DNA of 29,420 nt, taken from contig CAYNGE010000001.1 of assembly GCA_964396865.1 (NCBI GenBank), positions 1 to 29,420 of the forward strand, written 5' to 3'. Source of the DNA: an uncultured Planctomycetales bacterium. GTDB taxonomy: Bacteria; Omnitrophota; Gorgyraeia; Zapsychrales; Fredricksoniimonadaceae. Below the pieces are notes generated by a model that worked only from the letters and a program-made list of their open reading frames with translations, ran no database searches and was not told the DNA's origin. This document shows positions 1 through 27,200 of this stretch, piece by piece. Positions within the stretch are counted from its first letter, which is position 1. Each line of letters starts with the position of its first letter. Made by a program: the position numbers and the translations under genes.

Positions 1-231
1 CCTTCCACGAAGACCCTCGTTCTGTCTTACAAAACTCCTCCACTCGGCGTTTACATCCCTTTTTTGAGAAAAATTTGGTTCATAAATAGTTACGTGCGCG
101 CCAAGCGAAGCGACGATCACCTCAACCTCAATAAGCTTATTGCGGAAATAACCGCCAAGACTAACTGTGCCCGGCCCAACGGAAACAGCCGACCGCCAAG
201 CCTCTCCTCCAAGCCGGTGAATGGTATCAAG
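1..231 (-). other. Start of class I SAM methyltransferase domain (3), truncated by the window edge
   Basis: SAVSVGPG...VIVASLGAHVTIYEPN (motif I and beta2 acidic residue). Confidence 0.65.
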
Positions 232-3200: not shown

Positions 3201-6200
3201 TTTGACTGTCAATAAAATTCCCTAAATACCTTATGACTTCTTCCTCAGAGCTTGGGGCGCCGGTAACAGCAATAATATTACTAACATCGCTCAACTTCTT
3301 AGCGAATGCCTCTTTACCCTTCTCTCCTCCCATGCCGATAGTTACATCAAATACAACTAAATCAATGGCATTATCCGATAAAATCTTATTAGCCCCTGAA
3401 CAATTCGACGCGAAATGAAATTTGTATTCTGCGGAGGGGAATACGGCTTTTATCTTATTCTTACAGCAAGCTAATACTTGCCTTTGATCCTCCACGACCA
3501 GCACGCGCAGCTTAGCAGGATGAACTGGGGCTTGCACAACGCCGCTTGATGCGGTGGATGCCGGTTGCTGTACTGATTTTTGCGCTACCCTCTTATCCAG
3601 CCATCGCGCATGCCATTGCTCCACAATTGAAACAACGCGTTCGTTGGTAAAATCCTTTTGGCTGATGACGGTCTCACCAGGAATACAGAAACTCGCATCC
3701 TTCGAGGATCCCTCCGCCAAAAGCGAATGCATGATACATAATGCTTCAGGATTTGCTGAGAAGATATCCGTAGTTACGTCGCTCACTCTTGGGGCATTAG
3801 CTCCTCCACCGACATGAATTAACGCCAAATCAACATCACGGCGATATTGGGTAAGGAGAGCATCAAATTCCTCCCACGTCTCACGCCTCTCAACAACCCA
3901 TCCGGCATGGCGCTTAAGTTCTTCCTCAATTGTTTCATACCATCCGTGATAGTCAAAAATAACCACCCGAAATTCGTCCCTCCGTGCCGCAGGCGCAGGC
4001 TTATCTTTCTGTGCACGACTTTCTTTAAGCTTTTGGTCCATCCCTTTAAGCTCCAGAACTCCATGGAGCCGCTTCATCCATTCGGATTCCCAAGACGCCG
4101 GTACAAGCGGAAAGTTCAATGCTTCCTCCAAAAGTCCAATGAACGGCTGCACATCGGCCAAGTCATTTTCTGTAAATAGCCCTTTCTTCAATCCTCTCTG
4201 AACGGCAGACAAATCATTCAGTTTTCCGGCCAAGACTTTTTGGAAGATGGTCTTCTTGCTCTTGCCTCGCATGTGCTGCAAAACAGTCCACTCCAGCTTC
4301 CTATATAATTCTCCTAGATCTTTTCCTGAAGACTTCTTTGACAAAACGCATTCCTCAAGACGCTTGATCAACAAGGTTGATAACGGACTGCTCATCCATA
4401 TCGTAATCCTCTCATTAAAGGGGCTCTCATCAAGATATAATGACGCGTGCAGGCCGTCGCAAAAATAAGTTATCTCTTTTGTCGCCACCCACACTCCTTC
4501 GAATTCCTTATGACGGCGGAACTCCAGCGCGGAGGATAGCCCTTTGCGCAAAACCGGGCCATTGGCATAGGAAAATTCTTCCTGATTGATGCGGTCATGG
4601 ATCAAGGTGATGTTGTGCGCCGAACGCGAGCCCATATACGGGTCAACCAACACTCTGGCCATGGTTGTTTGATCAAGGACAGCTGAAGCCGCATCGTACT
4701 GGATGCGTATATACGGACGCCCAAATTCATTTTCAAACTTTTTAATCGTCTCTTTCGTCACATTTCTACCAAAGGCCACAACGCTTGCCTTAAATCCTTC
4801 GGGCTCCGTCGCGCCCAGGCCGATCGGCGTCTTGGCAATTTTCTTTTGGGATTGAAGAGTCTTCGACGCAACGACCAAGGGCTTACGGAAATCTCCGATC
4901 ATGGGACGCATCTGAATAATAGAAAAGACCGGGCCGGTAGACGAATGTTGGAGTCCCCACTCAACATCCATAGACACTCCAACCTCGTCTTCCAGCGCGT
5001 TAACAACCAAATTCAACACAGATGCATCTTGGGCGCTAAGCGGCGCAAAAGAGCCATTGATCTTGGAGTAACCGCCTAAAACCTTTTGAATCAAAGCGCG
5101 ATCGTCACGCGCACAATACTCTTTTCGTTTAAGACGAAATGCATAGGGCGTATCAAGGAATAAAGGTTGATACTCCATGGATGGCGCCTTTCCGCCCTCC
5201 GGCTTGGTGAACATATACTCTGCCGCATTCGCAAACATGGACTGCACAGCGTAATTCGTGTCACCAACAACCGCCTCAATTGAAGTATGGCCGGAGAAAT
5301 TTGACATCGCCACTCCTGAGACGTCAAAATCAAGAAATGGCTGGATTAAAATACCAAATCCTTCCTCTTCGCTTAAAATATCCGGCAGGCCCTCGATTTT
5401 CTTTTCTCCCTGGTATTGGCGAATCCAGATAATTTCAATGGCATCCTTAAAGATCGCTTTTACTGCCTGAGCAATGAGGTCCCTGTCGCACGCTCTCTTT
5501 GAGAGGAAAATTCCGGCGAGGTTACGGACAAACGAATCTTCCCAAGTGCCGCTTGAACGGGCAATGGCCCAGCCGGTCAATCCCGCCGCTTTATCTTTTA
5601 AAAAATTGTCCAGCTCATTAGAGAAATTAAAATTACTAATAAGGCGCTGCAATTCACGAAAATCCTGTTGTGTGAAACTACCTTTTGTCAGGGCCTTACG
5701 TATAGTCTCGTTGCCAGAGGTGACTAGTGCAGCATTGTCATGCAGAAAGATCGTCCAGGCCTCGCGGATAGCAACCGTCAACGAGGGCGTGATAGTCCGG
5801 ACATTGGCTCCGAGACGCTTGGCGATAATGGGTATAAGAATTTCCAGAATAATGGTCCACGCGATTTTCCCACCGTAAATCCCGGCAAGATACTCAAAAT
5901 AACGGCGCACGCCAACGGCCTTAAGGGCAAAATATTCGTTTTCGGCATCGGTACGTTGGGGGTAGGCCAAGAGGCTTGCCTCGTGCAGGCGGGCCATTAA
6001 ACATTCAACTTCATTTTCTTTGGATAAAAGCGGACGGTCGATATCGCAGCGTTCACCGCGGACAACGCTATGCAGGTTCGGCATCATCTTCCCGGCAGGC
6101 GGAGCCCGGGTTTCCATAGTGCCCATTTTCTCAAGGGCCGCGATAACCTTCTCATCGCCCGCGATCCTTTTGGCCTGGGCATCAACCTTGTGCAGATAAT

Positions 6201-9200
6201 CCCAATCTTCTGGACCAATGGAAATATTACCGGAAATTTCGTTTTGTATCGACGCTTCGCGTTGTTGAGGGTCCTTGGGCAATCGATCGTTCCTCTTGGC
6301 GCGGTGGGGATCGTTTGCAGCCGGCGGTATGGCGGAAATAGCAACAGAGGACGCTTGCAGAAGCCTGCGCAACTGGATGGGCTGCGGCTCGGCATTCTTT
6401 ACCACAATTTTAGGGCCCGACACAGGAAGAAGCGGTGTAAAGCTTTCCTGACCAGCCCTATTGAGAGCGTATTTAACAACGCCGCGCGCCTGCGTGAAGC
6501 GAAGAACGCCTCCATAATTCATATCCGACTCCAAACGACTGCGCCGTTCCATCGGAAGTGCAAGCGCCCTGCCGAGAAGAAAAGGCGTAAACGGTTTATA
6601 GCACCATCTCATTTTCTTTAGGCTCCGGCTCCCAGCGACAATCCTCTTGGCCAGCGTCTTATCCGGTGCCATGCCCGTGTAACCATGCGCAATCTTGACA
6701 TTCTTCTTACCAAACAGTCTTGTTGCCAACTCATAAGCGTACGCCAGATTTTTAATATACTCCCGACGTCCCAACAGCCTGTACCAGGCGCTCTCCGTTG
6801 TGATATGGAACCGTATGCTCAGTTTTAAATTGTGCTCCATTCTAATCCGGGCGATCATCGTCATCGCCTCCTCGCCGAAAGACCCCTTCAGAAATCCGGA
6901 CGTGCTAAACGAGTCCCCGAATAATACTTCCATCGTAAACCCACGGTCGCGCCAGGCCTCAACAATATGTCCGTAATGTTTGCTGAATAATGGATCATGG
7001 TAATCCTTAAGCGGGTCGGCACCGAACCAGTTAAATGCTAAGACAAAACGATTCTTAAAAGGCTCGCGGGGATCCTCACTGCAAAAGACTGTCATTTCGT
7101 CCATCAGTTCGACGATCCACGGCCACGGCATAGAGCTCGGGCGTATGGAGCATGGACGGCAGCAATAATCGCAATGGGTCGAACATCCTTCCGTTATGTC
7201 AACGTAAGCGTTATACATCGACCCTGCCAAAGACAACGCTTCTTTTGGATCCATGTGCTCGAAATACTTCTCAAACCATGCCGCCTGAGGGTTCTTAAGC
7301 GCGGCAACGAGCCGGGCAATCTCCTGTGCGTCCACCGGCGAGGACAAAGCCACATCGAGCGCCTTAACAAACTCGTGCCCCGCGGCGGATAACGGCGCCG
7401 GATACTTCGCAATAACTGTCCTCTGTTCTCTTAAAAATTCCAAGCCTTCTATCGAAAGCAGCTCCGCATGCTTGCGGCCAATTTTATTTTTATTATTAAT
7501 CTTTAAATATTGAAGAGGAGTCCCTGTCTTAGGTCGCTTGGGCAAATTAGACAATTCTCGTTTTTCTTTCAACACCTCGCGCGCCTCAAACAGTATCCTG
7601 CGAGTCGTTCCTTCGGGTTTTTTAATTATGCGACTAATTTCCAGTGCGGTAAGCCCTTCCAAACAATGCAGGACCAAAACTTGACCATGAAGACCGCCCA
7701 ATTCATCTATCCAATCTAATACCAAATTTAACTCTTCTCTTAACATTAGGTCGTTTGCCAGATCGACCGATTTATCTTGCAAGTCCTCTATTAGGCCTCC
7801 TCCCACAGCATAACGTACCCTATAACTTTTAATAAAATTAAGACTGCGATTTACGGCGATGGGATATATCCACGTATAAAAAGCTGATCCCCCTCGAAAA
7901 TATCTTAACTTTCTCCAAGCAGTAATAAAAGTCTCTTGGACGATGTCTTCGGCATCATGAAAATTCCTCACTATGGAAAAAACGATACTAAAAATCCTGC
8001 CCTTATATTGTTCCATCAGCATTTCAAAAGCCTGTATATCTCCACGTTTGGCGCGTTCGACTAATCCTGCATCTTTAAGACCCTTCCTATTGGTCATAGT
8101 GCGAATGGCAAAGGCTTCGGCAATTCTCGATTGATGATATTGATATTCACGGGTTTGATGGGCGGCGATACGGGCTTGGCGATTCTTTAAATCACTGTTG
8201 TTTGGATATTGCGCATGCAGGGCTGTAATAAACGCACGAACGGATGCCTGTTCACCCTGCGGATGGTCCTGAATAAACGCCTCAAGGAGAGCGGCGTATT
8301 GGTCCGGCCGTACGTTCCAAAAATCAGTCTCCTCATCTTCAGCCGCCTTCATAGCCACCGCAAGCGCGCGCTCATACTTGCCAGCCAGAAGCAACCTCTC
8401 ATACTTCTCCCTCGCCGTCTTGCGCATGGCGGGGGCTGAAGATCCTCCCGTTATCTTTTGCAGATCCTGATTCCTAATTTGTTGAGATTTAAAAGCAGAA
8501 TTTAATCGCCTGGTTGCATGCTTTATTGCCCCGTTTTTTAGTCCTTCCTCTACTGCAGATGTGCCCCAACACAATTCATAGCCGGCATGCCCATCCATCT
8601 GCCTATGAATTTTTGTATGCGCGATCAAACGATAAGCATGATAATAAAACCCAATCACCGTCGCCGTTATAGTTTTGCCCTTATACGTAAATTCAAGTTT
8701 CTCTCCAAAATCTACGTCCAAATATGACAATTTGCTTCGGGGCTCACTTAGGAAAGTCACTCGCCCCTTTAAGATATCCCCTAAATCAACTGTCTGCGGG
8801 GCTTCTTGTGAATCAGCAGGGCAAAGCGGACTATCAATAACCGGCAAAGCAATAGGGATGTATTTCAAAACACTTGACTTTAATGTCAACGCTTCCAATA
8901 TCATCACCCTTTTGATCTTCGGTGTTGGCGCATATTCCTGCCTAGAGACGCTTCCAGGCTCTGCAGATTTTTCGGTCAAACAAAGCCGGGGCTGCGTCTT
9001 GATATAAGCAATATCTCCCACCGATAGTAAAAGAGCTCTTTCTACACTTTGATCGATGCTTATTTTCTCCTTGCGAAGCCTTTCAACAGAATCAGCCATT
9101 ATCGGGATACTTTCTCCACAGCCCCAAAGATCAAGATGATCCATCCATTTTCTCAATAATTCATCAATATCTACCTCCTTGGCCTCAACTGGAACGATGT

Positions 9201-12200
9201 TTAATTCTTTCAGACGGCTCGGGAACAATTTGCTAATATCAATGAATGCCTCGTGGGACCCTTCTTTGTCCTTCGGGTTATGGTCCGGATGCACTTCCTG
9301 AACAAACATTCTGTAAATACTTTTTAATTCCTCTTCCGATTCAGCTGCGTCGATCAGTCTCTTGTATTTTGCTCTTACGCCTCCCCATTCGCCTCTTTCA
9401 TGGCTTTTAATTACCCCCTGTACAGGACATTTCGGATTATCCGCGTAATGCGCGACTGCCGTTGCCAAAATCCCCATCCTGCGGGCGCGACTGACAGGCG
9501 TTTCCATCAGATGGCTGCCCCTTACGGTTTGAATCATGCTAAAAATCTGCAGCCACCGCTTAAACTCCTGATCATAAATCCGGTCATATTTCTCCCCACG
9601 CAACAAAAGCAAAGTTTTATGGAGCTCCTGTACAGGTACCCAACCAAACGGTGTTAAAACCTCATCGTGCCAACCAACCCATTCCTTCGAATCACGACGG
9701 GAACCGTCAGGATTCGTCCTCGCCTCTTCCTCTCCGAGCACTCTGTTCCACATCGAATCTTCATTCAAATCCTGCGGAACAACGGCCAAAAGCTTCTTCA
9801 TCTCGGGAATCTTTTTTTCATTGATCAGGCTACGGAAAATCTTTAATTCAGCCTTATTACACGGTTGATATTTTCTGTACCAATCGCTTAATTCTGCCGC
9901 TTCGTCTACGGGCAAAACGAGAACCGTAACATGCCCACTCATGATATATTCCGGAACATAATGTGGAGAAAAAATATCGACGATAAAATCCTTATCCCCC
10001 ATTTTGACTAGAAGGTAATAATGTACCGCGCTGTCCTTCAACCGCTTGACAATGGCGACCTCCGCTTGCAGCCTCCTCTGAAGCGCCCAACCTAAAAGGA
10101 CATTCATCCAGCAAGAACCCTTTAACGCTTTTATTTTTTCAATACGCTGTGCGTCTTGATACGCCATCCGACAGAGCTGCTGATTTTCACTTGTCTTGCT
10201 ACCTACGGATGTTTTCTCCATCGCCATGGCGAAGAAGATGAAAGGAAGAAAACTGAAGATGTCATGGATAGACGGCAAATGACCAATGATAGACGTAAGA
10301 GGCCCCGCGCGGATGGCATGGGCGATGAAATTTCCAATCAGCAAAGACAACGCTACGGTTGTTATCCCCCATAACACCGGCATAATCGTATAGGCCATCG
10401 GCAAAAGAAAAAGCTGATTAGATAGTCGGGAGCCGCCCGTCTTGACCCTTTGGGCTCTTTTAACTTCCATGACCGCAAACGTCGTATTTTTATGGCGATC
10501 GGCTATATCAAAAATCTTCCAGGAATTCTGTTGATTATGCTGATGGATCCACTTCTGGACTCTTTGGTAATCTCTCTGAGCCTTGTAATAAATGGCCGCC
10601 TCCAGCGAAGAGCTTGTTTCTGATTGTTCAAGCGTTCTGTTTGTCATAAATGAAAAAACTTTTCCATCTTCTCTGCGGCCTGAGCGTCCGTTACGCTGCA
10701 CGGTATCCTTGTCAGATCCGGGGTCCGCATTAATAACCAATCTCACTTCATAATCTAACCCTACCTGACCAATGGAGCTTGAAACCAGCCAGATATATTG
10801 ACCCTCGTTAAACTCTTCCACCACTGTTTCCTGTTCCCTTTGCGTCTGCCGTATGCCGTCCTTCCCCCCTGATTGGCCCACAAGGATCGCCACTTTCTCT
10901 TTACCAACAATTTTTTGCAAAACCTGTTCAAGGTCCAAGATGAAACGCTTATTATTCGCAAATACAATGGCCTTAAAACCTTTTTTGCCCATGTTGTCTT
11001 GCGCAATTTTTGCCAATGCCTCCAATTTAGGATGAAAGACTTTATTTTCAAAGGCCCATTGCGCGATCCTCTCAACACCTGAATCTTTCAAAAATGGCAA
11101 AGTTTTTTTGCGCAATGTGACCAACTTGCCCATTGAAGCCGCCTGTTCTTTTTGCCGGAATTCTTCAATGGCATAATGGACATGCATTGGCCCGTATTTA
11201 ACGAATGTTGTAATGAGATGATTTAAATACACCAGATGGGTATACGCAATTGTGTGTTTCCCCCTGTCCTTAAGGCCCTTAACAAATGCGTCGTAACGGT
11301 CCCTATTCGGCAATAGGGCCGCGTCCTCGGTATCGGGGTATTGCCGTTTAAGGGCAAGCAAACCTCGAGCATACTCAAGCCGAAGTTTCAACTCTAACTT
11401 TTCCATGGAAACAAATCTTATAACTGCTTTGCGCAGATCTTCGGAAGTTTGTTTCTTTGTCTCCTCGCTATTAAGCCAGGCATGGACCTTGGCGGGATTA
11501 AGGATGGTAAGCTGTCCTTTTAAATAATCGATATATCGTCTAAGGTAATCTTGAACAGCCAAGGCATGCTCCCTGTCAGACTGAGACCCGCCTTTTTTTG
11601 GCTTTGTCGGTGCTTGTCGCTTGAGGGACCTTACCTGCTGTAGAATTTCAATCTCCGGGTCCACTTGCAGCAACTTTATTAATATATCAACCGCCGTTTG
11701 CCATTGGGCAGTATCTTCTGAATTGGCCTGATCTGTGATCTGTGCCCTTAAATTCTGATAAAATTCTTCGTCTAAACAACCCGCCCCTTTGGCTCGATCA
11801 TAAAGCTGATCAACAAACGCCAGTAAAAACTTTTCATGTTCTCTATATGAAGTATCTACTTTAATAATTTCGCGCTTATAAATATATGGTTGGATCAATG
11901 GATCATCATCAGCAATGGCCAAGACCCCCTCTTGGGAGATACGAAACAGCTTTATCCAGATCTGAATATCGCTTGGGGTGCCGTCATCAGGCCTATTAGG
12001 AGTATCGGGCGTTGCGGTCAATGCCAATAAATACGGCGGCAACTGCTGAACGGACATGCCCTGGTTAGACGCCTCTTGTTCTTTAAATTTGTGCACTTTT
12101 TCGACCAGTTTTGCCGAACTGCTTTTTTTACGCGCCATATGGGACTCATCAACGATCAAAAATGCTATCTGCTTTAAATAATCATCTTTCATTTGGACAA

Positions 12201-15200
12201 CCAAATCGCTGGTGGCAATGATGATCTTGCTTTCTTTCCAAATTTTTTCTCGCTCTTTACGCGAATGTTCCCTGGCCATAAGAGCAACAGGGACTCCTCC
12301 TGATGCCCCTTTTCTGCCCGGGCCGAGTAACCGGTTGAACAATTTATAATGTTGTCTGACCAATGGATTTGAGGGGGCCACAAACACGATCTTCTTATCA
12401 AAGCTGCTTTGAATATCTCCACGGGTCTGTAAAAGATACGCCGCCATAAGCACCGCAATCCCTGTCTTGCCTAAAGAAGTTTGTAAAAATACCGCTGAAT
12501 TTCTTAGCGTGCTTTGGGCTGCCGCCAACACTTGATACGCCCTAAATTCAAAATAAGCATTCAGCTGCCTGCCTTTTACGGAATCGATCATAAAATGATG
12601 GCCGAGTTCCGGATCCTCGAAATGTTTGATGGCTAACCCTAAATGCTTGATTACGGCTTGAACATTCGGATCGTTTTGCATCTCCGTTTCAAGCTGCCCG
12701 CGCGCTTGTATGACCTTTGCATCCAATGTTCCCTGTTTTATTTTTAATCGTTCCTTTTTAAGCTGATTTTGCATCTTCTTCATCCAGTAAGATTTTTTAG
12801 CTAAGGCCCACGGAAACATTTCTTCTTGGGGGGGCTTATTCTCTGATTGCTGCAATTCTGGTTTTCTCCCTCCCACTAAGTAATGTTCGGGAATATCTGT
12901 TGTATTAGTCAGAATAAAATCAGCTGGAATGGCATCTATATGTTGGGCATTAAAATGATCGGGTTCGTTGCCTTGAGGATAGGCAATGTGGATCAATTGA
13001 TCCTGGCCTAGTTTAAGGATATATTCATCGGCATCCCTTCTCTTATATAGCAGCATCTGCGTACCGAATTGAGCTAACTTGGGCTGTAGTCGTATTAAAG
13101 CCTGTTTTAAGACAAGCAATTTGCCCTGCGCCTTATCCCCATCAAGCCAGCCACAAACAGTTTCAATATCTACATTAACTAACGGGACCACCTCTCTAAT
13201 CAAGCAATTGTCCTTTTTGCCTACCTGGACACTTGGATTGCTTAAAAGGGCTAATCGCTCAAGGAATTTTTTCGGGTTATTATTGAACGGCTCCAATCTC
13301 TTTTTGGTCTCAAGAGATTCTTCCGTGTTCAAAAGATCAAGCCCACGCAAAACAGGATAGCTGGCCATCCCAAACTGATCCCAGCGGCTTAGTTTATTGA
13401 CCATCACCCTCTTCTCGTTAAAATATTTATTAACAGCAACGATAAACCCTTGTGTGTCGAATTTATGAGAATCCGGCAACCCCGCTTGAAATTGTTCTAT
13501 CTCTTTTTCTTTTCTGGCTTGCGTCACATAATATTCGGAAAGTCTTCCAACGGTCTGGTCAAATTCTGTTTGAACCCTTGTCTCAAAATTCGTTCGCTCT
13601 GCTTCAGTTAGCGCTAACTTTTGGGCGATGGCCTGTAACTCCTCAGTCAATTGCTTTGCAACCGAGACTCTCGCAACGACAGTAACATCCCCCGGCTCTT
13701 CTTCTTTCTCCTGAATAGCTTCAATTTCTTTCGCGATCCAATCATTGATTTTAGCTGCCACGTCCTTGAACTGTTGATCAATGGCCCCTTGTCTCGCTTT
13801 GCGCTCCTGCTCAAGAATTAATTGCTTTTCTCTATCGCCCAATCTCAACTGCAGATTCCGTTTCATCGCGTCAAAAACAGAATTTCCTTCACCGGCCGTA
13901 AAGCGCACCGTCTCGGTGGCGGCAACTCTCGACTCATGACATTGATATTCACGATCTTGATGGGCGGCGATACGGGCTTGGCGATTCTTTAAATCTCCGT
14001 TGTCGGGATATTGCGTATGCAGGGCTGTAATAAACGCACGGACGGTTCCCTGTTCGTTCTGGGGATGGTCCTGAATAAACGCCTCAAGAAGAGCAGCATA
14101 TTTCGCCGGGGATAAGTTCCAAAAAGCGTTCTCCTCATCTTCGGCCGCCTTCATAGCCACCGCAAGCGCGCGTTCAAACTTGCCAGCCAGAAGCAGCTTC
14201 TCATACTTTTTCCTCGCCGTCTTGCGCATAGCGGGCGCATCCCTTGATGCTTGCAGAAGCCTGCGCAAATCATCAGATTGCAACTCGCCGCCCTTCACCA
14301 CAATTTCAGACCCCGGCACAGGCAGAAACGGCGTAAAGCTTTCATGGCCAGCCCAATCGAGAGAGTGTTTAACAACGCAGCGCGCCTGCGTGAAACGAAG
14401 GACATCCCAAACTTCCTTCGTCGGTCCCAAACGATTGCGACTTTCCAACGAAAGAGCCAACGCCCTGCCGATAAGGCTGGGCTTGTACGGTTCGTAGCGG
14501 CACTGATCCATCGCCTCCAGATTATCACCGACAATTTCTTCTGCTAGCGCCTTATCCGGCGCCATGCCCGTGTATCCCTGCACGATATAGACATTCTCCT
14601 TACCAAATAGGCTTATCGCCAACTCACAGACATTCGCCAAATGTTTGACATACGTCAAACGGCCTAATTGTCTGTACCAGGCGCTCTCCGCTGTGATATG
14701 AATCCGTATGCTCCGTTTTAAATTGCGTTCCCTGCTAAGCCGGGCGGTCATCGTCATCGCCTCCTCACCGATAGATCCCTTCTCAAAGCCGGACGTGCTA
14801 AACACATCCCCTATTAATGTTTCCATCGCGAACCCATGATCGTGCCAAGCCTCGACGACATGTCCATAATGTTTGTTAAATAATGGATCATGGTAATCCT
14901 TAAGGGGGTCCCCTGCGAACCAACTAAACGCCATGGTAAAACTAGTCTCAACAGGCCCGCTAAGGTCCTCCTTTCTGTAAAAAGCCGCCATTTCGTCCAT
15001 TAGTTCGACGATCCACGGCCACGGCATGGAGCTCGTGCGCATGGAGCACGGGCGGCAGCAATAATCGCAATGGGTCGAACATCCTTCCGTTATGTCGACG
15101 AAGGCCTCATGCTTCATCCAGGCCAAAGATAACGCTTCTTTGGGATCCATGCGCTCGAAATACTTTTCAAACCATGCCGCCTGCGGGTTCTTGAGCGCAG

Positions 15201-18200
15201 TAACGAACGCGGCAATCTCCTGCGAGTCCACCGGTGAGGACAAAACCGCATCGAGCGCCTTGACGAACTCGCGCCCCGCGGCGGATAACGGCGCCGGATA
15301 CTTCGCAAGAATCATCCGCCGTTCCTTCAGGAATTCCAATGCTGCATCCAAACCCCGGGACGACCGATCCTGAAAAGATCTTACGCTTGATCCAATCCGG
15401 AGCGCATTTAATTTGTGAGCCCATGCTCTCCGACATTCTTGCGTATTTACTTGAGCTACCATGTCAAGGGGATTGAACGCAAATACAGGCCCCCCAAGAC
15501 ATTTATAATTGGACCATGATCTCATGGAAAAATACCCAAAAGTCTGCGGATCGTAATTAACGGCATAAAGCATTCTCACATCGTATAAATTAAATAAATA
15601 TAACATCAGCAATGTCCCAATCTGCCTTTTTTGGAAATTGCGATCCACATGGATCATAAATACCATTAAACTCCGCCGTCCCTTATAACGCACAACTTTA
15701 TAATCGATTTGAGCAATCACCGCCTTCGTTTTTTCCTCATTGATCACGATCCTATTCTTAAAAAATAACACCCTCTGACCATTTAAAGAAACCCGTGCTC
15801 CCACTCTATTTGAGATCAAATCCAAGAAGGCCTCTCTTAAATGTTCGGCTTGCCCGTCCTTCTTAATAGCGCACCTTGAGGGACGAATATGGTTCCATAG
15901 CCGATACATAAATATCTTCACATATTTAAAAACCTCGCCGGCAAAATCTACTATTAATCCGGCAAGAATACCACCAGCGTGACCAAAATTGCCTATCGGA
16001 ATAAACAATCCTAACAAAATCATCCAGACAAAATTAGTCCACAACAATTTTTGGCCTTTCAATTCTATATAAGGATAAGGGATGACCATAAATTTCTCAT
16101 AAGGAAAATATCGGGAAAAAGCTGCCATCAAGGCAAAGATCCCTGCTGAAGAGCCCACACAGCTCATATTACTGTATGTGAATAAAAGCCTGTTCCCTGC
16201 TTGGGAAGAAGCGGCTATCATGACCGGCAAAGTCCCTTCTGCTATACCTCCCAAAACAATGCCTAAAAAGAAAATCTTTAAGAATGCTCCCCGTCCTTTT
16301 TTCTTCTCAATGTCTTTACCAAAGACGTAAATGACCGCCCCGTTGACAAACAAATGAAATAACGACCCATGAAGAAATCCGTAAGTAAACAACGTCCAAA
16401 GATGTCCTCTTATTGAGTTATCCAGAGAAAGCCCAAACCAAGAAATCATGGGAGGGCCAATGATTAATTGTGCGAGATATACTCCTAAGATGGTAATCAT
16501 CACGGCATTGACACCAGGCCGCCATTGACCCGACGAACGCTTTTGCTCTTTGACTTCCTTCCAGAAGAAATAGCTAATAAGCATCGTAATCATTGCCCCT
16601 TGTGTATACGGCGCGACCGAATAAAACATATTATGATTGATAAAAAACAGAGCTAATTGAAACAGTAAAACTAGCGATACTCCCAAACAGACGGCCAGTC
16701 TCGGGATTGCGCCTTCAGGGATATCCTTGGATGAGCAAACCTCTTTGGTAATTGCTAAAATAGCATCAATCTTTCTTTTAATGAACTTTCCCCAACCTAG
16801 TTGATAGGCAATGGCGACACCAATAATGGCCAATCCCAACACAACGACAAAAGGCGACTGTGTCAATGATCCAAAGGACATCATGACCGTTCCAAAGGCC
16901 ATTTGAACTCCCGAATATCTTGCGCTTGAACCAATCGGCATGGCGGGAGCCGTATCTGAAAAATCTTTTATTTTTTGTAGTGGAATATGCGCCGCAATAA
17001 TGTGCCCGCCCAACGCTAATCCTTCCTCATATATATCATTACGCCAACCCAATTCTATAGACGGTTTGATGCGCCAATAATCAAGTTGTTCAAAAAGGTT
17101 ACTGATCCCGAAATTGTGCCCTCCGACATTGGTTGCTGATTTTGGAGCTTTAGGCCCTCTCCAAGGATGATGATCAGCATTAAACCATTTTCGTTTAGTT
17201 AGATGTTCTGGCAACGGGTGTTTTCCCTCTCCCCATATTTCAAAACGTAGGCCAGGGCAAGGCCTATCATGAACAAAAATTCGAATGACGGGCGAGTACC
17301 CGTCTCTGGCCTCATGCTGAATGATATTTTCCATAATAAGGCTCAACACTAATAACAAAGATTGGTCGGGATCTTTAACAATATCTTTGATATCAAACCC
17401 TTCTTTCGTTGCTGCAGAAATAATGATATTAAACAATTCCATATCCAAAAATCCCCTATTAGCATTAGCTCCTTCAACAAAGGTCTCCCCTCTTAAGGTG
17501 TACCTGCTAAGCACGATAAAAGGGACTTGGTTATTCCATACGGCTGATCGTTGTCTTAAAAATGCTTCATTAAAACTATACGGCTTCGGAAAGACCATCT
17601 TCCCGACAGCCATGCCGAGAACGAATAAAGGAAGGGCGCCAAAAATATCAACTAACATTTCCGGCCCTGTACGGATAAAGTTTGCGACGAGTTCATGAGC
17701 GCTGATAAGAAATGTCTGCACGCCGGGCCAATAATGGCCAAGCACCGTAATGGCAAACCCGCAGAACGCGACAGATGCCGCATCCTGAGAATCATTCCTG
17801 GCAGCTTTCGCAAGCGCCGGCATTTGCGTTGCATGATCTATGCTCGCTGCCGACGGATTGACCTCTGCGCGAAGCCGGGCATCAGGATGCTGTTTAAGAA
17901 AAGCCAGCGCTTGTTGCGCTGATCCCATCTCATCGTCATCCAGCGCCACTTTGCTAAAGATCCTCTCCCGCACGCACGCAAAAAAGAACCCAATAGAGAT
18001 CTCATCGGACCGGACTTCCCAAAGAATAGTACTTTTACGGGCCAGCCCAACCACCCGATGCATCAACGCCAAACCTATGCCGCTATGAGTATCGGCACCA
18101 CGATAGATACGTAACGCCACTTCCGCCTCTCTTTGATTCCCTTCCGCTACGCGGGGATTGAAATACATCTCCCCGATGGCCTGCTGTTGACGGGCAACAA

Positions 18201-21200
18201 TATAATGGTGCGGCTGGATCTCAAGTAAGCTCAAATCAGGTTTTAAAGGCACCGCCAGCACGCGCAACTCTTTTGATTCGCAAGTGCCTATTGAGACGGC
18301 GTATACCCAAAACATCTGCTTAAGCCTTTCAAGTGAACGTTCGGTCGGAGAGCGTTCAAACAAATGCTGGGTAAAATGAGGCACTTGATGATTAAAAAGA
18401 CAAAGACAAATGAGCTTAGCCATGATCTCCGAGACCCCGTTGAGTTGTTTCTCCGTAAGGGGCTCAACGCTCTCGAGAAATCCCCCTACCCCGTGGGCAA
18501 AGGGCACGATCAAAGCAGGCATCTGGGTACAGATATCGACGATCATATCGGTCAGTTTATGGTTGATCTCGCAAGGAGGATAATTCACATCATGGGCACG
18601 TAAAACAAGGACATCGACTAACCGTGCCAAGGCCGGCGCTTCGGCGCTCTCATCCATGCGAAGGATCCTATTTTTAATTTCATCATATTTATACGCATCA
18701 ATAAGCCCATTGAGTTCTTGATCTGTCATAGCCAGGGGCTTCTCTGGCAACTCCATTACTTTACGTGCCAATAGAACTGACTTGAGCGCATTTTCTTCTT
18801 GGCCCATGAGATTTACATTTTCAAAACGTAACACTTCATTTAAGTGAGGGTTGTTAAGAAGGTTTACGGGAATAATGACTTGTTTATCGAGGACGCAAGA
18901 AATAAGGAAGGAACCTTCTGACTCAAACCAAAGATACGGCGGGGCACGGTCAGATATGCTTACATTAGGAATAAAAATACGCACGGCCTCACTCTCAAGA
19001 AGAGGCTGATTAATAGGCAGAAGAGCTTGGACCATTCTATTTTTTATTTCCGGTGATATATCACGGAAACGCACCAATTCTCCGCCCTTTAAAACTTTAC
19101 GGGTATGTTGTTCTGCTTTTGGGCTCATTTTATTATTCTCAACCGTTCCCACACCACAGGACTTTGGCGCACTGCCTGCGGTCCCAGGATCTGAAATCTT
19201 CGCGATATCCACCCGGTACATCGGCTGATACATGGGAGGAGCCGGCCGCTTGTGAAGACGGCCAACCTCAATATAAGCGGCCAAAAGCTGGATCCTAAAC
19301 GGAACAAGAAACGGGAATGGATCTCGAGGATACCTGTTGACCATAATTAAAGACGAATTATTTCTGTCATACGTATATTGCTGCACCTGTGTCCTTGAAT
19401 TCAACGCGTCAAACAAAATCTTTGGACCATGGTCCCCAGATGCCGTGAGGTCCTTTAGCCAAACCCGATTAATACTGTGAATGAACGCCTGCCCATTTTT
19501 CCTGAGCGCCCTTTTGATCTCACGAACAAGCCCAAGCTGGTCTTGGATATATTCGCTCGTGGCTGCAGGAACCAATACCATATCAAAACTCTGATCCTTG
19601 TATAAACCAAGCCCTTGGTCTACATCGTGGATAGTCAATCCTTTCTCAAATGAATACTGAAATTTTTTGATTTCATTGATGGACGGCAGCCGGCCGCTCT
19701 TCCAAATCTTATAGCGTTCCTTCAAGGTCTCTCGATATTGACGGGCACCGACCCTGATCGTTTCCTTATTAATATAGGTAAGACGAATCCTCTGCCCGCC
19801 AAGGAGCTTGCGGATCGTGCGGACAATCTCGCCGGCACCAGCGCCAATGATCAAGATGTCCGCCCTGCCCTTCTGATCCAAAAGTGCTTTGATCGACCGG
19901 CTGATCTGACCATTAAAATGGTCGTCCTCCATTAGAAAATCCCGCATTACGTTGCCTTCAGCTTGATAAGGATTTTGACATGGCAGTGCCAGATCAACTG
20001 TTCTTGCGGCTTGATATAGAGAAAGGCCGGCATCACAAATAAGTTTCTTGAACGCCGCTCTCATGGCTCTGGCCCGCGGACAAGATTGGGGGTCCGGAAA
20101 ATAAGCCATATGAACATCCAGATTTTCCAGATGTCCATTGACTCTGACGAGTTTATTGAGCAATGCTCTGGCGCTGCGAGCCTCCTGCAGGCCATTGAGG
20201 AGGGCCAGAATTTCTCGAATAGCCACAAGGTTTGTTTTGATCCTATTCTTTTCAAACTCTACCCGCGAAATCGGTGCGTATGCCTTTATTCCCTCAACTA
20301 CTTGGGCTAAATTTTCCCGAACAGAATGAACATCGCCCTTGATCTTTATAAGAAGTTCTGCAATCTGCAAAGGAGCGCCCTCAATGCCCGCCATGGCTTT
20401 GATTTTTCCTATTACAGCCGGAATATCTTTTATAAGCAAATCTACCGGCAGATCCGTATGATAACGACCATTCCACTTATCCATGAGTGTTTCAATATCC
20501 TGCGAAGCATCAGCCGCTCTAAGATCGGCCAGAAGCTCTTCGGCAAGCACCTTGGCCTCGGTTATTTTCTTCTCTTGAATAAGGCGTCTTATCCCGTCTA
20601 TCGCCAGATGGATCGAGGTCGCACCCGCACCCGTATAGCTTGGTAATTGATTGGCTCTAAATTCTATTTCATTTTCAGCATAGGCGGATCTCAGCGGTTC
20701 CTGAGTTTGCAATAGCGAGGTCAAAACACCGCCATATTCGATGACTTGATCGATGAGCTCGCATGCGCCATCTATATGTTTCTGACCAAGCTGCAGGATA
20801 CGCGGATTCTCGCCATAAATCGACGCTGATGGCCTTCCTAGATTTATTGATACCGCTTCCGGGAATTCGACCAATAATCTACGGCCGTTGTGAAAACTAC
20901 CCGCGGAGTCCTCCAGGACCATCGCCTCCTGAATTTTAATTTCAGGGCAGGCGGCCAGCAAGCTGCGCACCGCACCGGCCTTGTCTGATTTAACGATCTT
21001 GACGCTTGACCTTCCGGCTTTATAAATAAAGTATGGCAATTTCTCTTCACTTAACTTACTTCGCAGGATGCGAACGAATTCATCCTGATCGGCGATATTC
21101 GTTAGATCAATCCGCGTAGAAGGAGAGATCCTCTCCGGCCTTGTATCGTTTTCAAATTGGCCTTCAAAGAGCCCATTGAGAATATCCGCGATACGGCCTC

Positions 21201-24200
21201 TTTCTTTTGCGGTGAAAGTATTATGTTCATTGTAATCGGTAAAATACCACTTGGCGCCATCAGGAAGAAAAGTATAGCCAAAGCTGCCACCGGCACAAAA
21301 GACAAAAATCCTGTTCAAATAAGACCTAACCTCCGGTTCGCTTAATAGTGGTTGTAAACGTTTGTCGAGAAATGGTTCAATTTCATCAGTCACTAATACG
21401 AGCGGCGTATCCAGCTTGAGTAATTTCACTAACCGTCCAACAATCTTGGGTTCAATATCAACCTGGCCCTTTGCCATTGCTAACACGCCATCCAAGTCGC
21501 TTACGAGTGCCTTGACTTTGCGCAAAGTCTCCAGTGAAATCGGCTGCCTGCGCTTGATCTCAGGTAAACCAAATTGTGCGCGGAATTCTATATACTTGTT
21601 TCGCACGGCCTGGATATAGGCATGATTAAGCCTTACGCCATGTATTGGGCTGTACGCGAGGAAAAAGCGTTTAAAGTTATTTTTATCATCATAATTTGCG
21701 GCATGATGTTGGCCATTAATAAACCCATTCCTTACATCATCCGGGATCGCGGCATCTTCTATCGCTGATTCAATAAAAATAACCGCCGGCCCTGTAAGCG
21801 AGGCGATATCTATCTTTTTAGCTTTGGAGATAGGGCCTTTCTGATCACGAAGCCACAATTGGTTATTACCCGGATACCAGAAGTGCAAGGAGTAACCCTG
21901 TCTTGGCCCCTGCATAGGCGACATAAGGTTTTTATATTGTTCGAACATTGTATTATATTCACCGTCATGCAGAAGTTCTTGCAAACGTTCATCGCTACAT
22001 TGAAATTGTGCGGCAGAAAGCCTGGTTTCGCCTATCAAAAGATGGCTTAAGAGGATCGCTGCGCCGTTTCGATAGCCTTGATATGCGTCTGGAATATGGG
22101 CTGAAGTACGGCCGGGATCATCAACCGATGTCGTACCGTCAACCACCACAATGAACGGCTGGACCTTCAATAGATATTTTATCTGGGATTCAGTAAATAA
22201 ATGCGGATTGATCACTAAAGGATTATTATGTGATTCGGTAGAGCCCACTTTAGTGCTCCAGACGGGTATCTTGGTGCCGATCATATAAGTTTCCCCGCCT
22301 TCTTCTTCAGTAATAGGCGCAAGCGCAACGCCTCCATAGCTTAAATTTTGAATAACTACCAATGGCCGACCGAGTGCTCCGGCCTTAACTTCAATCTCTA
22401 CGATCTTCTCCCGCACCAGATGCGCCTCGTATACTAAACCCGCAATTTCACAGAGTTCCTGTTGGTCAAGTCCCAACTGATCGTTCGGCAGCCCAAGTCT
22501 CGCCTTTGTGAAAAATTCAACAAAATCCTCATATTCATAGAACCTGGTGTGAACCAAAGAACGCTTTAGTTCATTACGCAATATTAGATAGTTAAGGTCC
22601 GTATATACGGGATTGCCCTCTTCAAAATATCCCTGCCTGACCTTTTCGAACTCCCTCTTTAATTCCGCAAGCGATAATGAAGATTTGACTAAGTTCGGTA
22701 ATGCGTCAAGGCCGTCTTCTCTGGCATTTAATAACATTTGATGGCGCGGCAAAAATTCCGTCCATCTTTGACCGTAGGTAATTTTGAGTTTATTAATAAA
22801 AGCGTCTATGGTCCTGAAGTTTTCCGGCGTAACTGTGCCTAATTCCAAACGTATGATATCCTGCAGGCATGAACTATATTGACCGGTCTCCGGGCCCGGG
22901 AAAGCCTCTGCCATATTTTCAAACAACACTAAGCTGGTAAAGACCTCCTTGACATTTCGATTGAAAAGTTTGGTTAAAAATACTATGATCGGCCACTTCT
23001 TGCGGAATTCCTGAGGCGTGAGGAACCGTTTAAGGTGTGCTATGTTGACCTGAACAAGCTCAACTGCATCCACTCCGTGAGTACTGCACAGATCGAATAT
23101 ATCATCCTGATAGATCTTTAATTCATCGGCTGAAAAAAGCCGCTGCAGCCCGCAGCAAAAGGCCTCATAGCGGGTCCTTGACATATGACTTTTAAGGCGG
23201 TGGAGTTTTCCATTATGAATAATGTCTTTAACGCTTTCCACGGGCGGCGTTCGGGACGCCAAAAGCATTTTGGATCTTTTGGCTTTGGATATTCTAAACC
23301 GTTTCCACATATGCCAAAGCTCAATGCCAAGCACAATAAGTGCTACAGTAAAGAGGTCGGCGCCAAAGGAATATAAGACCTGTTTTTGTCCATCTTGTCC
23401 CCCATTTAAATCTTTTCCTGGCCGCGTGATAGTGTTCTTGTTTTGCCAAGTGGCGCTGTCCCCTGTGTTTGTTTTTTCTAAGGTGCGCAAAATATGGATC
23501 GGATATAAGAATGACCCCACATGGCCGACATCAATGTGCTCAATGTTAAGATCCTTCCTTAATTCAACCATCATCCGCATCTCCTGCGGCATTTCATAGC
23601 CGTCAAAAAGAACAACGCCTCTCTTCTTCTTGACAACCCTCAGTACTTCTTTGGTAATCTCAAATACCTCGCCCTTCAGCATAGAAAACATGCCCAGACC
23701 TACAGACACTACCTTATCAACGCTGTTGTCCGGAAGCGCTATGCCTTGGTGTGAAAATCTGGCGTCCGCCATCATCAGTTTAATATTAGGAATCGGGGCC
23801 GTCTCTTTTTCAATAGCGGCAAGTGTTACTAAGGCCTCTCTCAAGTTAAACGGGTTTGCATCAAGCGCAAAAAACTTTGTACCAGGATGACGCCTAGCCA
23901 TAAATATAGCCTCACGCCCCAATCCAGCCAGTATATGTAAAACGGTCTCGTTTTCTTTATAATTCAGAAGGCGGTCGAATTCATCAGCGTGGCGAATAAA
24001 TGAATCCGCCACTGCAGGGTTATCCCAAAAATAACCCGGGTCATTCTGTTCACTTTCAATAAGCATTCTGTTCCTGCCGGCTCCGTCTCTTCCCATATTC
24101 TTGTCAAACATGTACACGTATTTGAAGAAGACTTTTTGGAGTCGATCTTCATTGACATCCAACAATATGAGAAAATTTACAACAGCCCTTACATCCGTAA

Positions 24201-27200
24201 GAGTAGCGTTATAGGGATTTTTTAAGACCTCCCGCGCCTTAAGTACCAGTGCTTCAATTTCTGCCGCAGTATAGGGGCCGTATGTTTTTATGAGCTCCAG
24301 CCTGCTCTGATAATTCTTTGTCTGATCTGGAAACTCTTCTTCCAAATACTCGGCCGCCGGGTCCCTCCGGGCTAACAGGGCCAATGCGTCAATGGCCGCT
24401 ATGCGCACCGCCGGAGTTTGATTCTCCAGTCCCCGTCCGGAATCCTCTGAGTTTCCAGTTTGATGCCTGTATTTGGCAATTGTCGCCGCCACGACAACCG
24501 AGCCCAAAAGTCCCACCACAGGCCCCACGGTGTAGATGTTCATTAAAGATATTGCTGCCAGCCCAATCCCCCACTCCCCTGCCAAGGCAATGGTAGGAAA
24601 CAATATAAGACCTAAACCTATCATTAAGGTGAGCATAATCCCTCTGCCCTTAGTAAAGATACGGCCTCTTTTGACTTGAGCCTGTCTCTCTATATCTTGG
24701 GCCCTTTGATTATTTATTTGGGCATGCTTATGCTCTCCTAATGCCTCATAAATTCGAGCACGCATACGGTATAATTGGACATTAACTGACTTTTTCTCAA
24801 CACGATCCAATTGTTCAATGTGATTTAAAAGTATTAAAGAATTCTTAAGAAGGCTTTCATAATTCTTTGACGCTTTGTAACCGATCGTGTGCTCAACTAA
24901 ATCTAGAATGATCTGCTCATAGCCAAACAAGTCTGGTTTGATTGCAAACATCTGTGCCATAGCTTCATTGGCTCTACCAGAATCAAAAAGAGCCAATATA
25001 TGTGCTTTGAGACATATGCCTTTGTAGGGCTTTATGCCTTTCCTATATATAAGGATCGTCATAATGACGCCAAATAACAGTGCCGCAAAAACGACAAATA
25101 AAACAACAACTTTACTGTTAATCCCCATCGTCAATATTGTCGGTGTGAATACGCCCCCGCCAATGCCCCGCTCTCCTGCCTGATCGAACAATGGGAAGCT
25201 GTCCCCTTTAACTTTCCCATGGACATTTAGATTGCCCAAAAGAGCTAACTGTTCAAGGAATTTTTTCGGGTTATTATTTAACGGCTCCAATCTCTTTTTG
25301 GCCTCAAGAGATTCTTTTGTCTTTAAAAGATCAAGCCCGCACAAAACAGGCCGGCTGACCATCCCAAACTGCCCCCAACGGCTTAGTTTATTGACCATCG
25401 TTCTCTGCTCATTAAAATATTTATTAACGGTGACGATAAACCCTTGTGTGTCAAATTTATGAAGATCCGGCAACCCTGCTTGGAATTGTTCTATCTCTTT
25501 TTCTTTTCTGGCGCGTGTCACATAATATTCGGAAAGTCTTCTAATGGTCTGGTCAAATTCTACTTGAACCATTGTCTCAAAATTCCTTCGCTCTGCCTCA
25601 GTTAGTGCTAACCTTTGAGCGGTGACCTCTAGCTCTTCAGCCAATCGCTTTGCAACCGGGACTCTTGCAACAACAGTGGCATCCCCCGGCTCTTCTTCTT
25701 TCTCCTGAATAATTTCAATTTCTTTCGCGAGCCAATCATTTATTTTAGCCGACACGACCTTAAATTGTTGATCAATGGACCCTTGTCTTGCTTTGCGCTC
25801 CTGTTCAAGATTTAATTGCTTTTTTCTATCATCCAATCTCAACTGCAGATTCCGTACCATCGCTCCCAAAAAAGGGTTTTCTTCATTGGCCGTCAACTCC
25901 TCCATCGCGGCGGCGGCAACTCTCGATTCATGATATTTACGATTGCGGTCTTGATGGGCGGTGATACGGGCTTGGAGATTCTTTAAATCTCCGTTGTTGG
26001 GATATCGCGCATGCAGGGTTGTGATAAATTCACGAACGGACTCCTGTTCGTCCTTCGGATGGTCCTGAATAAACGCCTCAAGAAGAGCGGCGTATTTCGT
26101 CGGAGATGCATTCCAAAAATCAGTCTCCTCATCCACGGCCGCCTTCAGAGCAACGGCGAGTGCACGATCATTCTCGCAAGCCAAAATCATCCTCTCATGC
26201 CTCTTCCTAGCCATCTTGAGCATTCCAGGAGGCGCCAAAGGCGTCTGATCTAGCCCGTTTGGCGCTGTTTGATACAATAGAATTTCTTGGCGCAATTTTT
26301 CTTCTAATTGCTCAATTGCCCTTTCATGGCCGGATAGGCCTACTAACCATTCGATAAGAATGTTATATTCATCTTTTGCCAAAGATATGTTCAAGAAAAT
26401 ATAGATCACGTACCACAAGTCATCTATATGGGCCATGTCCGTTGTGTACCGCTGTTGATCGAAATATTTATCAATGACATTGCTTGTCACGCACTGGAGG
26501 CATGTCTGAATTTTGGGGAGATCGAATGCCGGGACCTTCTTTAATCTTCCTAAAGCGCTTGGATTTTTGATCGATATCTTCACTGCATAAACGATCTGCT
26601 GGAAATTTCTAATGTGCCCGTAAAGACCTTGCACGCCTAACTCCTTGGTTAAGTCAATGGGAGATGAGGGTTCGCCTTTATAAATTGTAGCCCCCTGAGA
26701 CAGAGCATGGATCTCTTTAATAGATGCAAGGAGTCCCGCCAGTTCGAACTTGCGGACAGACGCCTGCGGATTTTCCCCAGTACTTGGCCTTTGTTCTTCA
26801 ATGTCAGGATAGAGGCTGCCCCATCTTCTATTTCCCGTCCATGGCTTGGAGAGTTTGACTACTATTAAGTTATACCTCCACCCGGATCTAAAATTCCTAG
26901 GATTTAAGGCCGTAGTAACCTTCTTCATGTCTCTGAAACAAACAATCACTGTGTCCTCGCATCGATGTTTTATCACATAACTTATTGCAGGTATTTTCAG
27001 TACGGCTTCGTTGATCTCCCGCATTTTCTCTACTACTCTCTTCGGGTCATTTATCCTGCTCTTAAGATACGCTCGAAAGGCCCATACAGCCGCGTACACA
27101 ACGGCAGCGAGTGCAAGGATGGCAATAACAGGCCCGACCGGCCCGCCCATAAACGCAAACGCTAAAGCGGATCCTCCCAAAAGATTACCCCCGCCATGGA

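Follow-up and report, generated by a model that had tools for sequence, protein, structure and literature searches.

Old, dispersed in-frame module duplications and a fused sigma module as the probable record of growth in a giant Omnitrophota-type gene

The window analysed here, a stretch of 29,420 nucleotides, reads in a six-frame scan as a single stop-free minus-strand frame of 9,806 codons (nt 29418 to 1), open at both ends, along which two modules, A (about 336 aa) and B (about 368 aa), recur in the N-to-C arrangement A1 ... B1|A2 ... A3-sigma-B2, with 0-2 codons between B1 and A2. A giant gene carrying old, dispersed in-frame module duplications and a sigma fusion best explains the whole, with a probability of roughly three in four. 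The repeats are old and intact, a record of past growth and not of ongoing shuffling, and nothing in the results shows an active mechanism of variation. The 2023 study of giant genes (10.1101/2023.11.21.568195) explicitly deferred the question of how a bacterial gene grows to tens of thousands of codons, and the present locus is a clean, datable example, with two kilobase modules apparently copied to distant in-frame sites, sharp and coincident breakpoints, and an adjoining sigma fusion. The locus further brings to light a radical-SAM-like family that is very rare and has many members within giant proteins. Repeated domains arising by older duplication have already been reported as the rule in long proteins of Omnitrophota, and the value of the case is illustrative, not conceptual.

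The frame is probably an internal piece of a membrane-anchored giant multi-enzyme gene (at least 9,806 aa) of the Omnitrophota type (Table 1). At least ten different Pfam families match along it, in a tiling of Rhomboid, two methyltransferase regions, DEAD/ResIII, Helicase_C, DnaJ, Sigma70 r2/r4, PPDK_N and Response_reg of which none dominates, and a crude predictor (19-mers with a Kyte-Doolittle mean of at least 1.8) finds 13 hydrophobic, TM-like segments. Only the PPDK_N/REC segment has a long homologue outside the window, the protein P0001 (32% over 1,360 aa), and none of the six loci found in a PPDK_N-based metagenome scan has A, sigma or B upstream. No ortholog of the giant gene was detected in any collection searched, the recurring short linker peptides of P0001 and P0002 have no counterpart in the window protein, and no Rfam family matched in the window. 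An Omnitrophota origin is probable from the hosts of module B; the window itself contains no marker gene, and GTDB species representatives gave no hit.

Table 1. Features of the window, in N-to-C order after the enclosing frame; all coordinates are nucleotide positions in the window and residues of the frame.
Feature	Nucleotides	Residues (aa)	Strand	Basis and remarks
Giant ORF	1..29418		-	uninterrupted, fragment of a giant multi-enzyme gene; six-frame scan, Pfam, TM-like segments
A1 (module A, copy 1)	25222..26229	1064-1399	-	self-comparison; TM segment follows at aa 1437-1455
Rhomboid intramembrane protease domain	15943..16407	4338-4492	-	Pfam PF01694, E 9.6e-18; upstream of B1
B1 (module B, copy 1)	14239..15342	4693-5060	-	self-comparison; GCSTHCDYC ... 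MPWPW
A2 (module A, copy 2)	13228..14235	5062-5397	-	self-comparison; directly abuts B1
DEAD/ResIII + Helicase_C (Hef-like) helicase	10672..12507	5638-6249	-	between A2 and A3
A3 (module A, copy 3)	8116..8436	6995-7101	-	N-terminal ~107 codons of A only; closest to A2
Complete ECF-type sigma-70 module, regions 2 + 4	7561..8097	7108-7286	-	Pfam Sigma70_r2/r4, TIGR02937
B2 (module B, copy 2)	6349..7446	7325-7690	-	self-comparison; 32/33 family-conserved positions kept
PPDK_N, then diverged receiver (REC) array	1930..5808	7871-8173 (PPDK_N), 8621-9163 (REC)	-	Pfam, profile matches

Self-comparison places the copies within about 11 nt of the positions given by the first-pass annotation and confirms the order reported there, in which A and B swap places. 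The matches between copies have E-values of 1e-44 to 1e-164, and the copies are therefore not due to chance. All start-to-start spacings (11994, 5802 and 7896 nt) are multiples of 3 and the internal indels comprise whole codons, so that the frame is indeed preserved throughout, as had been claimed. The similarity of A3 stops at aa ~7101, six residues before the start of the ECF-sigma match, in agreement with the earlier observation that A3 is cut where sigma begins, and a further 38 residues separate sigma from B2. One sharp inter-module boundary recurs: codon 5058-5060 is the limit of B similarity, and codon 5061 is where each of the three A copies begins. Since the breakpoints all fall at this boundary, the modules behave as self-contained units. 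Profile searches of the window, P0001 and P0002 turned up no further diverged copy of either module, and mapping at 80% stringency found none outside the window.

Pairwise comparison puts the copies at 79-87% nucleotide identity (13-21% of bases differ), with dS of 0.30-0.54 and dN/dS of 0.35-0.47. A1 and A2 share 75% of their amino acids and 84% of their nucleotides (dS 0.34, bootstrap interval 0.25-0.45), A2 and A3 87% of their nucleotides (dS 0.30, 0.16-0.47), and B1 and B2 69% of their amino acids and 79% of their nucleotides (dS 0.54, 0.42-0.67; omega 0.35); values of 0.16 and below lie outside these intervals. As dS is larger for the B pair than for the A pairs (bootstrap P~0.01), the B duplication is older than the A duplications. 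Every confidence interval of omega (0.35-0.47) lies below 1, and the copies diverged under purifying selection after duplication. A relative-rate test on B1 and B2 showed no consistent asymmetry, and the parent copy of the two is for this reason not nameable. The longest exact shared runs, put at 31-44 nt in the first-pass annotation, measure 32/32 nt (A1-A2), 39 nt (A2-A3) and 44/36 nt (B1-B2) and lie within codon-shuffled expectation (P 0.02-0.73, six tests); the sole nominal exception, the 44-nt run (P=0.019 among the six), is lost on correction and falls in the N-terminal, more conserved half of B. With no excess of long identical tracts over the codon-shuffled controls, there is thus no sign of gene conversion.

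Environmental support comes from Logan contigs of soil and peat metagenome runs from different studies, three of which (X1, X2 and X3) were mapped at depth and two (X4 and X5) at very low coverage. Each copy and its unique flanks are covered without a single difference, and soil and peat samples likewise show 0 differences from one another at the locus. Contigs of X1, X2 and X3 cross the B1|A2 joint (contigs 14063-15082), X1 contigs 23500-26088 and 26059-27368 cover the A1 flanks, and error-free contigs of the same three runs cover the long unique stretches between copies; depth is even across the copies. A check for RNA runs found none. The X1-X3 contigs, in which rare variants would be missed, contain no deletion or rearrangement joints between copies, the only apparent joints being cross-mapped B2 contigs with codon-sized indels. 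The graph has one branch, at 5993/6110, for which no local repeat accounts.

These observations support growth by dispersed duplication within the gene, in which two discrete modules were placed in frame elsewhere through two or more, probably three, distinct segmental duplications, B first (dS ~0.54) and A later (dS ~0.30-0.34). The copying may have proceeded by illegitimate recombination or through short homologies, with selection retaining only products whose frame stayed open, and A3 would have been truncated where a complete, compositionally distinct ECF sigma gene fused in frame. The module in question is a complete ECF sigma, scoring 77 bits against TIGR02937 (cutoff 42.9) over positions 2-164 of 165, with Pfam E-values of 8.9e-16 for region 2 and 3.4e-4 for region 4. 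All 47 of its relatives are free-standing sigmas of 158-346 aa, its GC3 is 0.38 vs 0.54-0.59 in the flanks, and it resembles an entire gene that was captured. The B1|A2 joint may be a derived juxtaposition of two modules and not the ancestral state. With no outgroup for A and no ortholog detected for the gene, neither how many duplications took place nor their direction can be rooted.

A different route to the same arrangement would be a single permutation, with one duplication of a B-A unit and its circular permutation giving A'-B in one step, by tandem duplication and then trimming or through a circle that was opened again at the B|A boundary, and with the sigma gene taken up where the new joint formed. 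On the B1|A2 unit, B2 at its C-terminal end and A3 at its N-terminal end do map to the same point, within 1-3 codons, and A3, sigma and B2 are contiguous, with just the short spacers given above between them. Yet the dS of A2-A3 and that of B1-B2 indicate different ages, an inter-domain linker or independent copies juxtaposed at B1|A2 would explain the coincident edges just as well, and A1 has the same N-terminal edge without an adjacent B. We therefore consider the permutation unlikely, and hold the same doubt about the wider proposal that joins to it the in-frame sigma capture and the prospect that the copies could yield rare in-frame deletion variants. Were the permutation true, giant Omnitrophota genes would grow in two ways, by taking in entire genes from their neighbourhood and by reshuffling the modules they already have, which would be a concrete and testable mechanism by which genes of 10-100 kaa are built.

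Unlikely too is the view that the repeats are active substrates, at which homologous recombination maintains a population of in-frame deletion and duplication variants. All copies run in one direction, in register and in a common frame, and with spacings that are multiples of 3 any crossover would keep the ORF open; their exact shared runs of 32-44 nt come near the minimal length that RecA-type recombination generally needs; and Logan contigs drop rare variants, so that low-frequency ones could escape. Against this, the copies are just 79-87% identical, conversion tracts do not exceed the shuffled expectation, and the contigs of X1-X3, which come from independent studies, contain no inter-copy joints and are identical in sequence across them. 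The first-pass annotation had taken the gene to be growing by module recombination, and part of that stands, namely dispersed in-frame duplication in permuted order; its word "ongoing" finds no support where copies 13-21% diverged are set against a locus invariant between soil and peat samples, and its suggestion that the repeats now generate variant proteins fares no better, given neither an excess of conversion nor, in the X1-X3 contigs, any joint between copies. That the repeats or their order stem from the wrong joining of paralogues of separate loci or strains, conceivable for a metagenomic sequence in which short-read graphs break at shared 31-mers (contigs end at repeat edges) and in which the graph branches once, is very improbable, as error-free contigs of three runs cross the B1|A2 joint, the A1 flanks and the unique stretches between copies, depth is even, and random mis-joins would not keep a frame open for 29.4 kb through every junction: the copies are not an assembly artefact.

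The two modules differ in what is known of their kin. Module A is predicted to be all-helical from a low-confidence model (the structure models are poor, with pLDDT 44 and 54), and no relatives of it were detectable in the collections searched; nor were relatives of the B1-A2 unit found in the word-indexed protein database, GTDB genomes, IMG/VR, JGI metagenomes, or phage or plasmid records. For the family of module B, a search of 1.84 billion proteins yields 42 representative clusters. About a dozen of these clusters sit in proteins of 2-6.5 kaa with a single B each, and among the eight named hosts of B seven are Omnitrophota MAGs and one is labelled a Thermoproteota archaeon. B1 and B2 are mutual closest relatives (69% aa identity, vs at most 35% to any outside B), and B was therefore duplicated within the present gene lineage. 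A CxxxCxxC...PWPW signature is conserved across the family, whose cysteine motif is present in 38 of the 42 representatives, some of the others being fragments; both copies carry it as GCSTHCDYC, and each keeps 32 of 33 family-conserved columns. Both B copies are probably functional domains, since the Fe-S cluster cysteines and other family-conserved residues are kept.

From its sequence, B appears to be a rare, divergent radical-SAM-like domain. As in the radical SAM superfamily (PF04055; YydG epimerase, RimO methylthiotransferase), its CxxxCxxC follows a beta-strand, where those enzymes bind the [4Fe-4S] cluster, beta and alpha elements alternate, and the weak profile matches align exactly over the motif. 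These matches comprise Radical_SAM in 10 of 14 B members (best E 2e-5) and, as the best PDB profiles, YydG (E 0.008) and RimO, while B1 scores 13.6 bits against PF04055, under the cutoff of 29.5. The structure model has six beta/alpha units at a poor pLDDT of 44, and Foldseek returned for it weak TIM-barrel matches only (E >=2.5e-3, TM <=0.42). Unlike the superfamily, B scores below the Pfam gathering score, has GDPL where the GGE SAM-binding motif would be expected and an invariant PWPW after the cluster motif, and forms a tiny family with many members in very large proteins.

The gene as a whole most resembles the "Archaeovorins" (West-Roberts et al. 2023, 10.1101/2023.11.21.568195) and the "multi-enzyme metabolic cluster" class of a 2026 complete-genome survey (10.64898/2026.06.07.730766). 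Giant proteins of Omnitrophota commonly contain methyltransferase, PPDK_N, radical SAM, REC and TM regions (10.1101/2023.11.21.568195); 80% are sequence singletons and 65% contain a Pfam domain more than once, a feature ascribed to duplication and divergence of older date (10.64898/2026.06.07.730766). Likewise, the window ORF, of at least 9,806 codons with both ends open, combines many unrelated domains with none dominant, among them methyltransferases, PPDK_N, a radical-SAM-like domain, receivers, a DEAD-type helicase and several TM segments, is a singleton with intra-polypeptide repeats from older duplication, and comes from soil and peat. It departs from the class in lacking SecA_DEAD, HEAT, glycosyl-transferase and NUDIX domains within the window, although a SecA_DEAD domain may lie outside; a divergent SecA_DEAD is reported in most full-length giants, and the helicase here matches DEAD/ResIII/Helicase_C and Hef instead. 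A further difference is the presence of a complete ECF sigma, a rhomboid protease and DnaJ, and the word "sigma" is absent from the text of both studies (10.1101/2023.11.21.568195; 10.64898/2026.06.07.730766). Dispersed, kilobase-sized and permuted, the repeats retain 79-87% DNA identity and are younger than the "dissolved" repeats of the two surveys. Titin and the bacterial giants of the RCC1 and dockerin/TSP3 types similarly gained length as whole domains were duplicated in frame and then diverged, but theirs are for the most part tandem repeats of a single small fold, whereas here two different modules of ~340-370 aa recur 1,934-3,998 codons away with their relative order inverted.

A single stop-free frame on the minus strand fills the entire 29,420-nt window in a six-frame scan, its codons running from nt 29418 to 1 (9,806 aa) with both ends open; the automatic ORF list, which holds only one small plus-strand ORF, misses it because end-crossing ORFs go unlisted. 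Window GC is about 46% and even along its length. Unrelated Pfam domains are strung along the frame (see table), the helicase being Hef-like (NCBIfam), together with 13 transmembrane-like segments in a simple hydropathy scan. This content agrees with published descriptions of Omnitrophota giant proteins, in which multi-enzyme tiling, methyltransferase, PPDK_N, radical SAM and receiver domains, and many transmembrane helices are reported (10.1101/2023.11.21.568195).

Repeat copies and domains of the giant reading frame
Feature	Residues (aa)	Position (nt)	Strand	Source
A1	1064-1399	25222-26229	minus	
Methyltransferase region 1	~1826-1931		minus	Pfam
Methyltransferase region 2	3189-3313		minus	Pfam
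Rhomboid protease	4338-4492	15943-16407	minus	Pfam
B1	4693-5060	14239-15342	minus	
A2	5062-5397	13228-14235	minus	
DEAD/ResIII	5638-5805		minus	Pfam
Helicase_C	6131-6249		minus	Pfam
DnaJ	6691-6730		minus	Pfam
A3 (just the N-terminal ~107 codons of A)	6995-7101	8116-8436	minus	
Complete ECF sigma, regions 2 and 4	7108-7286	7561-8097	minus	TIGR02937
Sigma-70 region 2	7134-7199		minus	Pfam
Sigma-70 region 4	7236-7285		minus	Pfam
B2	7325-7690	6349-7446	minus	
PPDK_N	7871-8173		minus	Pfam
Receiver domain (inside diverged tandem array aa 8621-9163)	8639-8731		minus	Pfam

Three copies of module A, a putatively helical unit, and two of module B, a radical-SAM-like one, emerge alike from DNA repeat finding, protein self-comparison and profile searches, with no extra copy of either in the window by profile search. 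These kilobase-scale, in-frame copies lie where the first-pass annotation had placed them and in the N-to-C order it had claimed, A1 … B1|A2 … A3-sigma-B2; the frame is likewise kept, with copy spacings (11994, 5802 and 7896 nt) all divisible by three and indels few and of whole codons, and exact shared runs are present (longest 32, 32, 39, 44 and 36 nt between copies). Similarity between B2 and B1 ends at codon 5058-5060 ('…LLQAS'), codon 5061 is the start of all three A copies ('AP·AM[RL]K[TM]AR'), and A3 similarity stops at aa ~7101, shortly before the sigma match begins at aa 7108. Such codon-level breakpoints mark A and B as separate units that meet at one sharp boundary. That boundary is possibly an inter-domain linker whose repeated use selection tolerated; alternatively, the B1|A2 joint may itself be two copied modules juxtaposed. 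On a third reading A3-sigma-B2 would be a permuted copy of B-A, but the differing dS of A2-A3 and B1-B2 makes its origin in a single event less likely.

Divergence between copies (codon alignments, Nei-Gojobori, 1,000 bootstraps; 95% confidence intervals in brackets)
Pair	Identity, nt	Identity, aa	dS	dN/dS
A1-A2	84%	75%	0.34 (0.25-0.45)	0.40
A2-A3	87%	80%	0.30 (0.16-0.47)	0.37
A1-A3	81%	68%	0.39	0.47
B1-B2	79%	69%	0.54 (0.42-0.67)	0.35

The copies are of moderate age and have diverged with purifying selection acting on them: nucleotide identities span 79-87% and dN/dS 0.35-0.47, with every dN/dS confidence interval below 1, and the B duplication predates those of A (P~0.01). The longest identical runs match the prediction from overall identity (codon-column shuffling; P 0.02-0.73 in six comparisons), and the sole nominal outlier, the 44-nt run in the more conserved N-terminal half of B, is lost on six-test correction, so that there is no sign of gene conversion. 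The locus is present in soil and peat metagenomes of several studies, and Logan contigs of three such runs from different studies (X1-X3) show zero differences over the repeat regions; with copies so diverged and the locus identical across samples, the duplications must be far older than the spread of the present population. An assembly artefact is ruled against by these zero-difference contigs, which bridge the B1|A2 joint (14063-15082) and both A1 flanks (23500-26088 and 26059-27368).

The evidence supports growth of the gene through module duplication and re-ordering that kept the frame, but gives no support to the earlier contention that shuffling is ongoing, the copies having the age and selective history described. 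Recombination between in-register copies is mechanistically possible, because the frame would stay intact; the proposal that the copies generate variant giant proteins nevertheless found no backing, neither conversion nor structural variants appearing in the available data (contigs of X1-X3). No copy-to-copy joints occur in those contigs, which end at shared 31-mer edges, as expected of a de Bruijn graph, and two apparent skips are cross-mapped B2 contigs, each off by exactly one codon. Metagenomes holding the locus contain no copies elsewhere at 80% identity or more, cross-mapping contigs all being A1, A2, A3 or B2. Separately, a contig in X1 and X3 links window positions 5964-5993 (a 30-mer) directly to 6110-6150, leaving out 116 nt, a length not divisible by three, and then runs on for ~255 nt that do not resemble the window, with a depth near that of the main path; no local repeat accounts for this branch, which may be a paralogous stretch beyond the window or a strain variant.

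Duplication was probably accompanied by acquisition. The sigma module scores 77 bits against TIGR02937 (cutoff 42.9), covering positions 2-164 of 165, and its 47 relatives (158-346 aa, best 41% identity) are without exception free-standing ECF sigmas; its third-position GC (GC3) is 0.38 vs 0.54 in A3 and 0.59 in B2 alongside. The module has the look of an entire gene taken up in frame. Along the frame, GC3 per 150 codons has an SD of 0.060 vs 0.041 from binomial sampling; against a gene-wide 0.47, the B copies are the richest stretches (0.59-0.62) and sigma is one of the poorest, a pattern that suggests a mosaic in composition and, tentatively, more than one source for the modules. The word 'sigma' is absent from the text of both Omnitrophota giant-protein papers (10.1101/2023.11.21.568195; 10.64898/2026.06.07.730766).

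Module A, predicted with low confidence to be all-helical, has no relatives in the protein database, GTDB genomes, IMG/VR, JGI metagenomes, or phage and plasmid records. Module B, which carries GCSTHCDYC and then MPWPW, belongs to a family of which an exhaustive profile search recovered only 42 clusters among 1.84 billion representative proteins. CxxxCxxC occurs in 38 of these, mostly followed by PWPW-like residues; the family pattern is an invariant GC…C..C with a conserved PWPW ~12 residues on and, in a departure from radical-SAM enzymes, 'DPL.DY.DP' at the place of the GGE motif. Pfam Radical_SAM matches 10 of 14 members weakly (best E 2e-5), the family profile matches YydG (E 0.008) and RimO, both radical-SAM enzymes, over the cysteine motif, and a poor AlphaFold model (pLDDT 44) has six beta/alpha units and finds weak TIM-barrel matches, and nothing else, in Foldseek. 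The most fitting description of module B is a divergent, rarely occurring domain of radical-SAM-like type. Both copies look intact, each retaining 32 of 33 family-conserved positions (the exception is common to both) with no consistent rate excess in either.

About a dozen B-family proteins are 2,000-6,500 aa long, with one B each and nothing else in common with the window protein. Seven of the eight named bearers come from Candidatus Omnitrophota MAGs; the eighth, P0002 (3,711 aa), is labelled a Thermoproteota archaeon, which suggests mis-binning or cross-domain transfer, and its ORF occupies its entire 11-kb contig (GCA_042576685.1, JBHPEX010000133.1). P0002 also has ~15 recurring 'SSSPL/GSSPV' linker motifs between domains. 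From these hosts and the domain content we infer an Omnitrophota origin of the gene; the window itself holds no marker gene and has no match among GTDB representatives.

The sole other long homologue is P0001 (6,748 aa), over the PPDK_N and receiver segment (32% identity); relatives of this segment sit in host proteins of quite another make-up, none with A, sigma or B upstream of it. The gene is a singleton, as are 80% of Omnitrophota proteins that reach 10 kaa or more; a Pfam domain is repeated in 65% of proteins in this size class, ascribed to older duplication and divergence, not recent tandem expansion (10.64898/2026.06.07.730766). The locus illustrates, clearly and in datable form, a process that published work describes as common for genes of this class. 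Dispersed intragenic duplication is not peculiar to it, since P0001 also contains a dispersed repeat in frame (aa 2243-2353 vs aa 3651-3759, 76% identity), along with several MutS_V-like segments and a 'TDTDLSGQGPSQPAAKAAE' linker that recurs. The rhomboid domain, an intramembrane serine protease, lies ~200 residues upstream of B1 within the giant polypeptide, and motifs of M48-type metalloproteases are present in P0001 and P0002; conceivably, such giant polypeptides could be processed by membrane proteases embedded in them.
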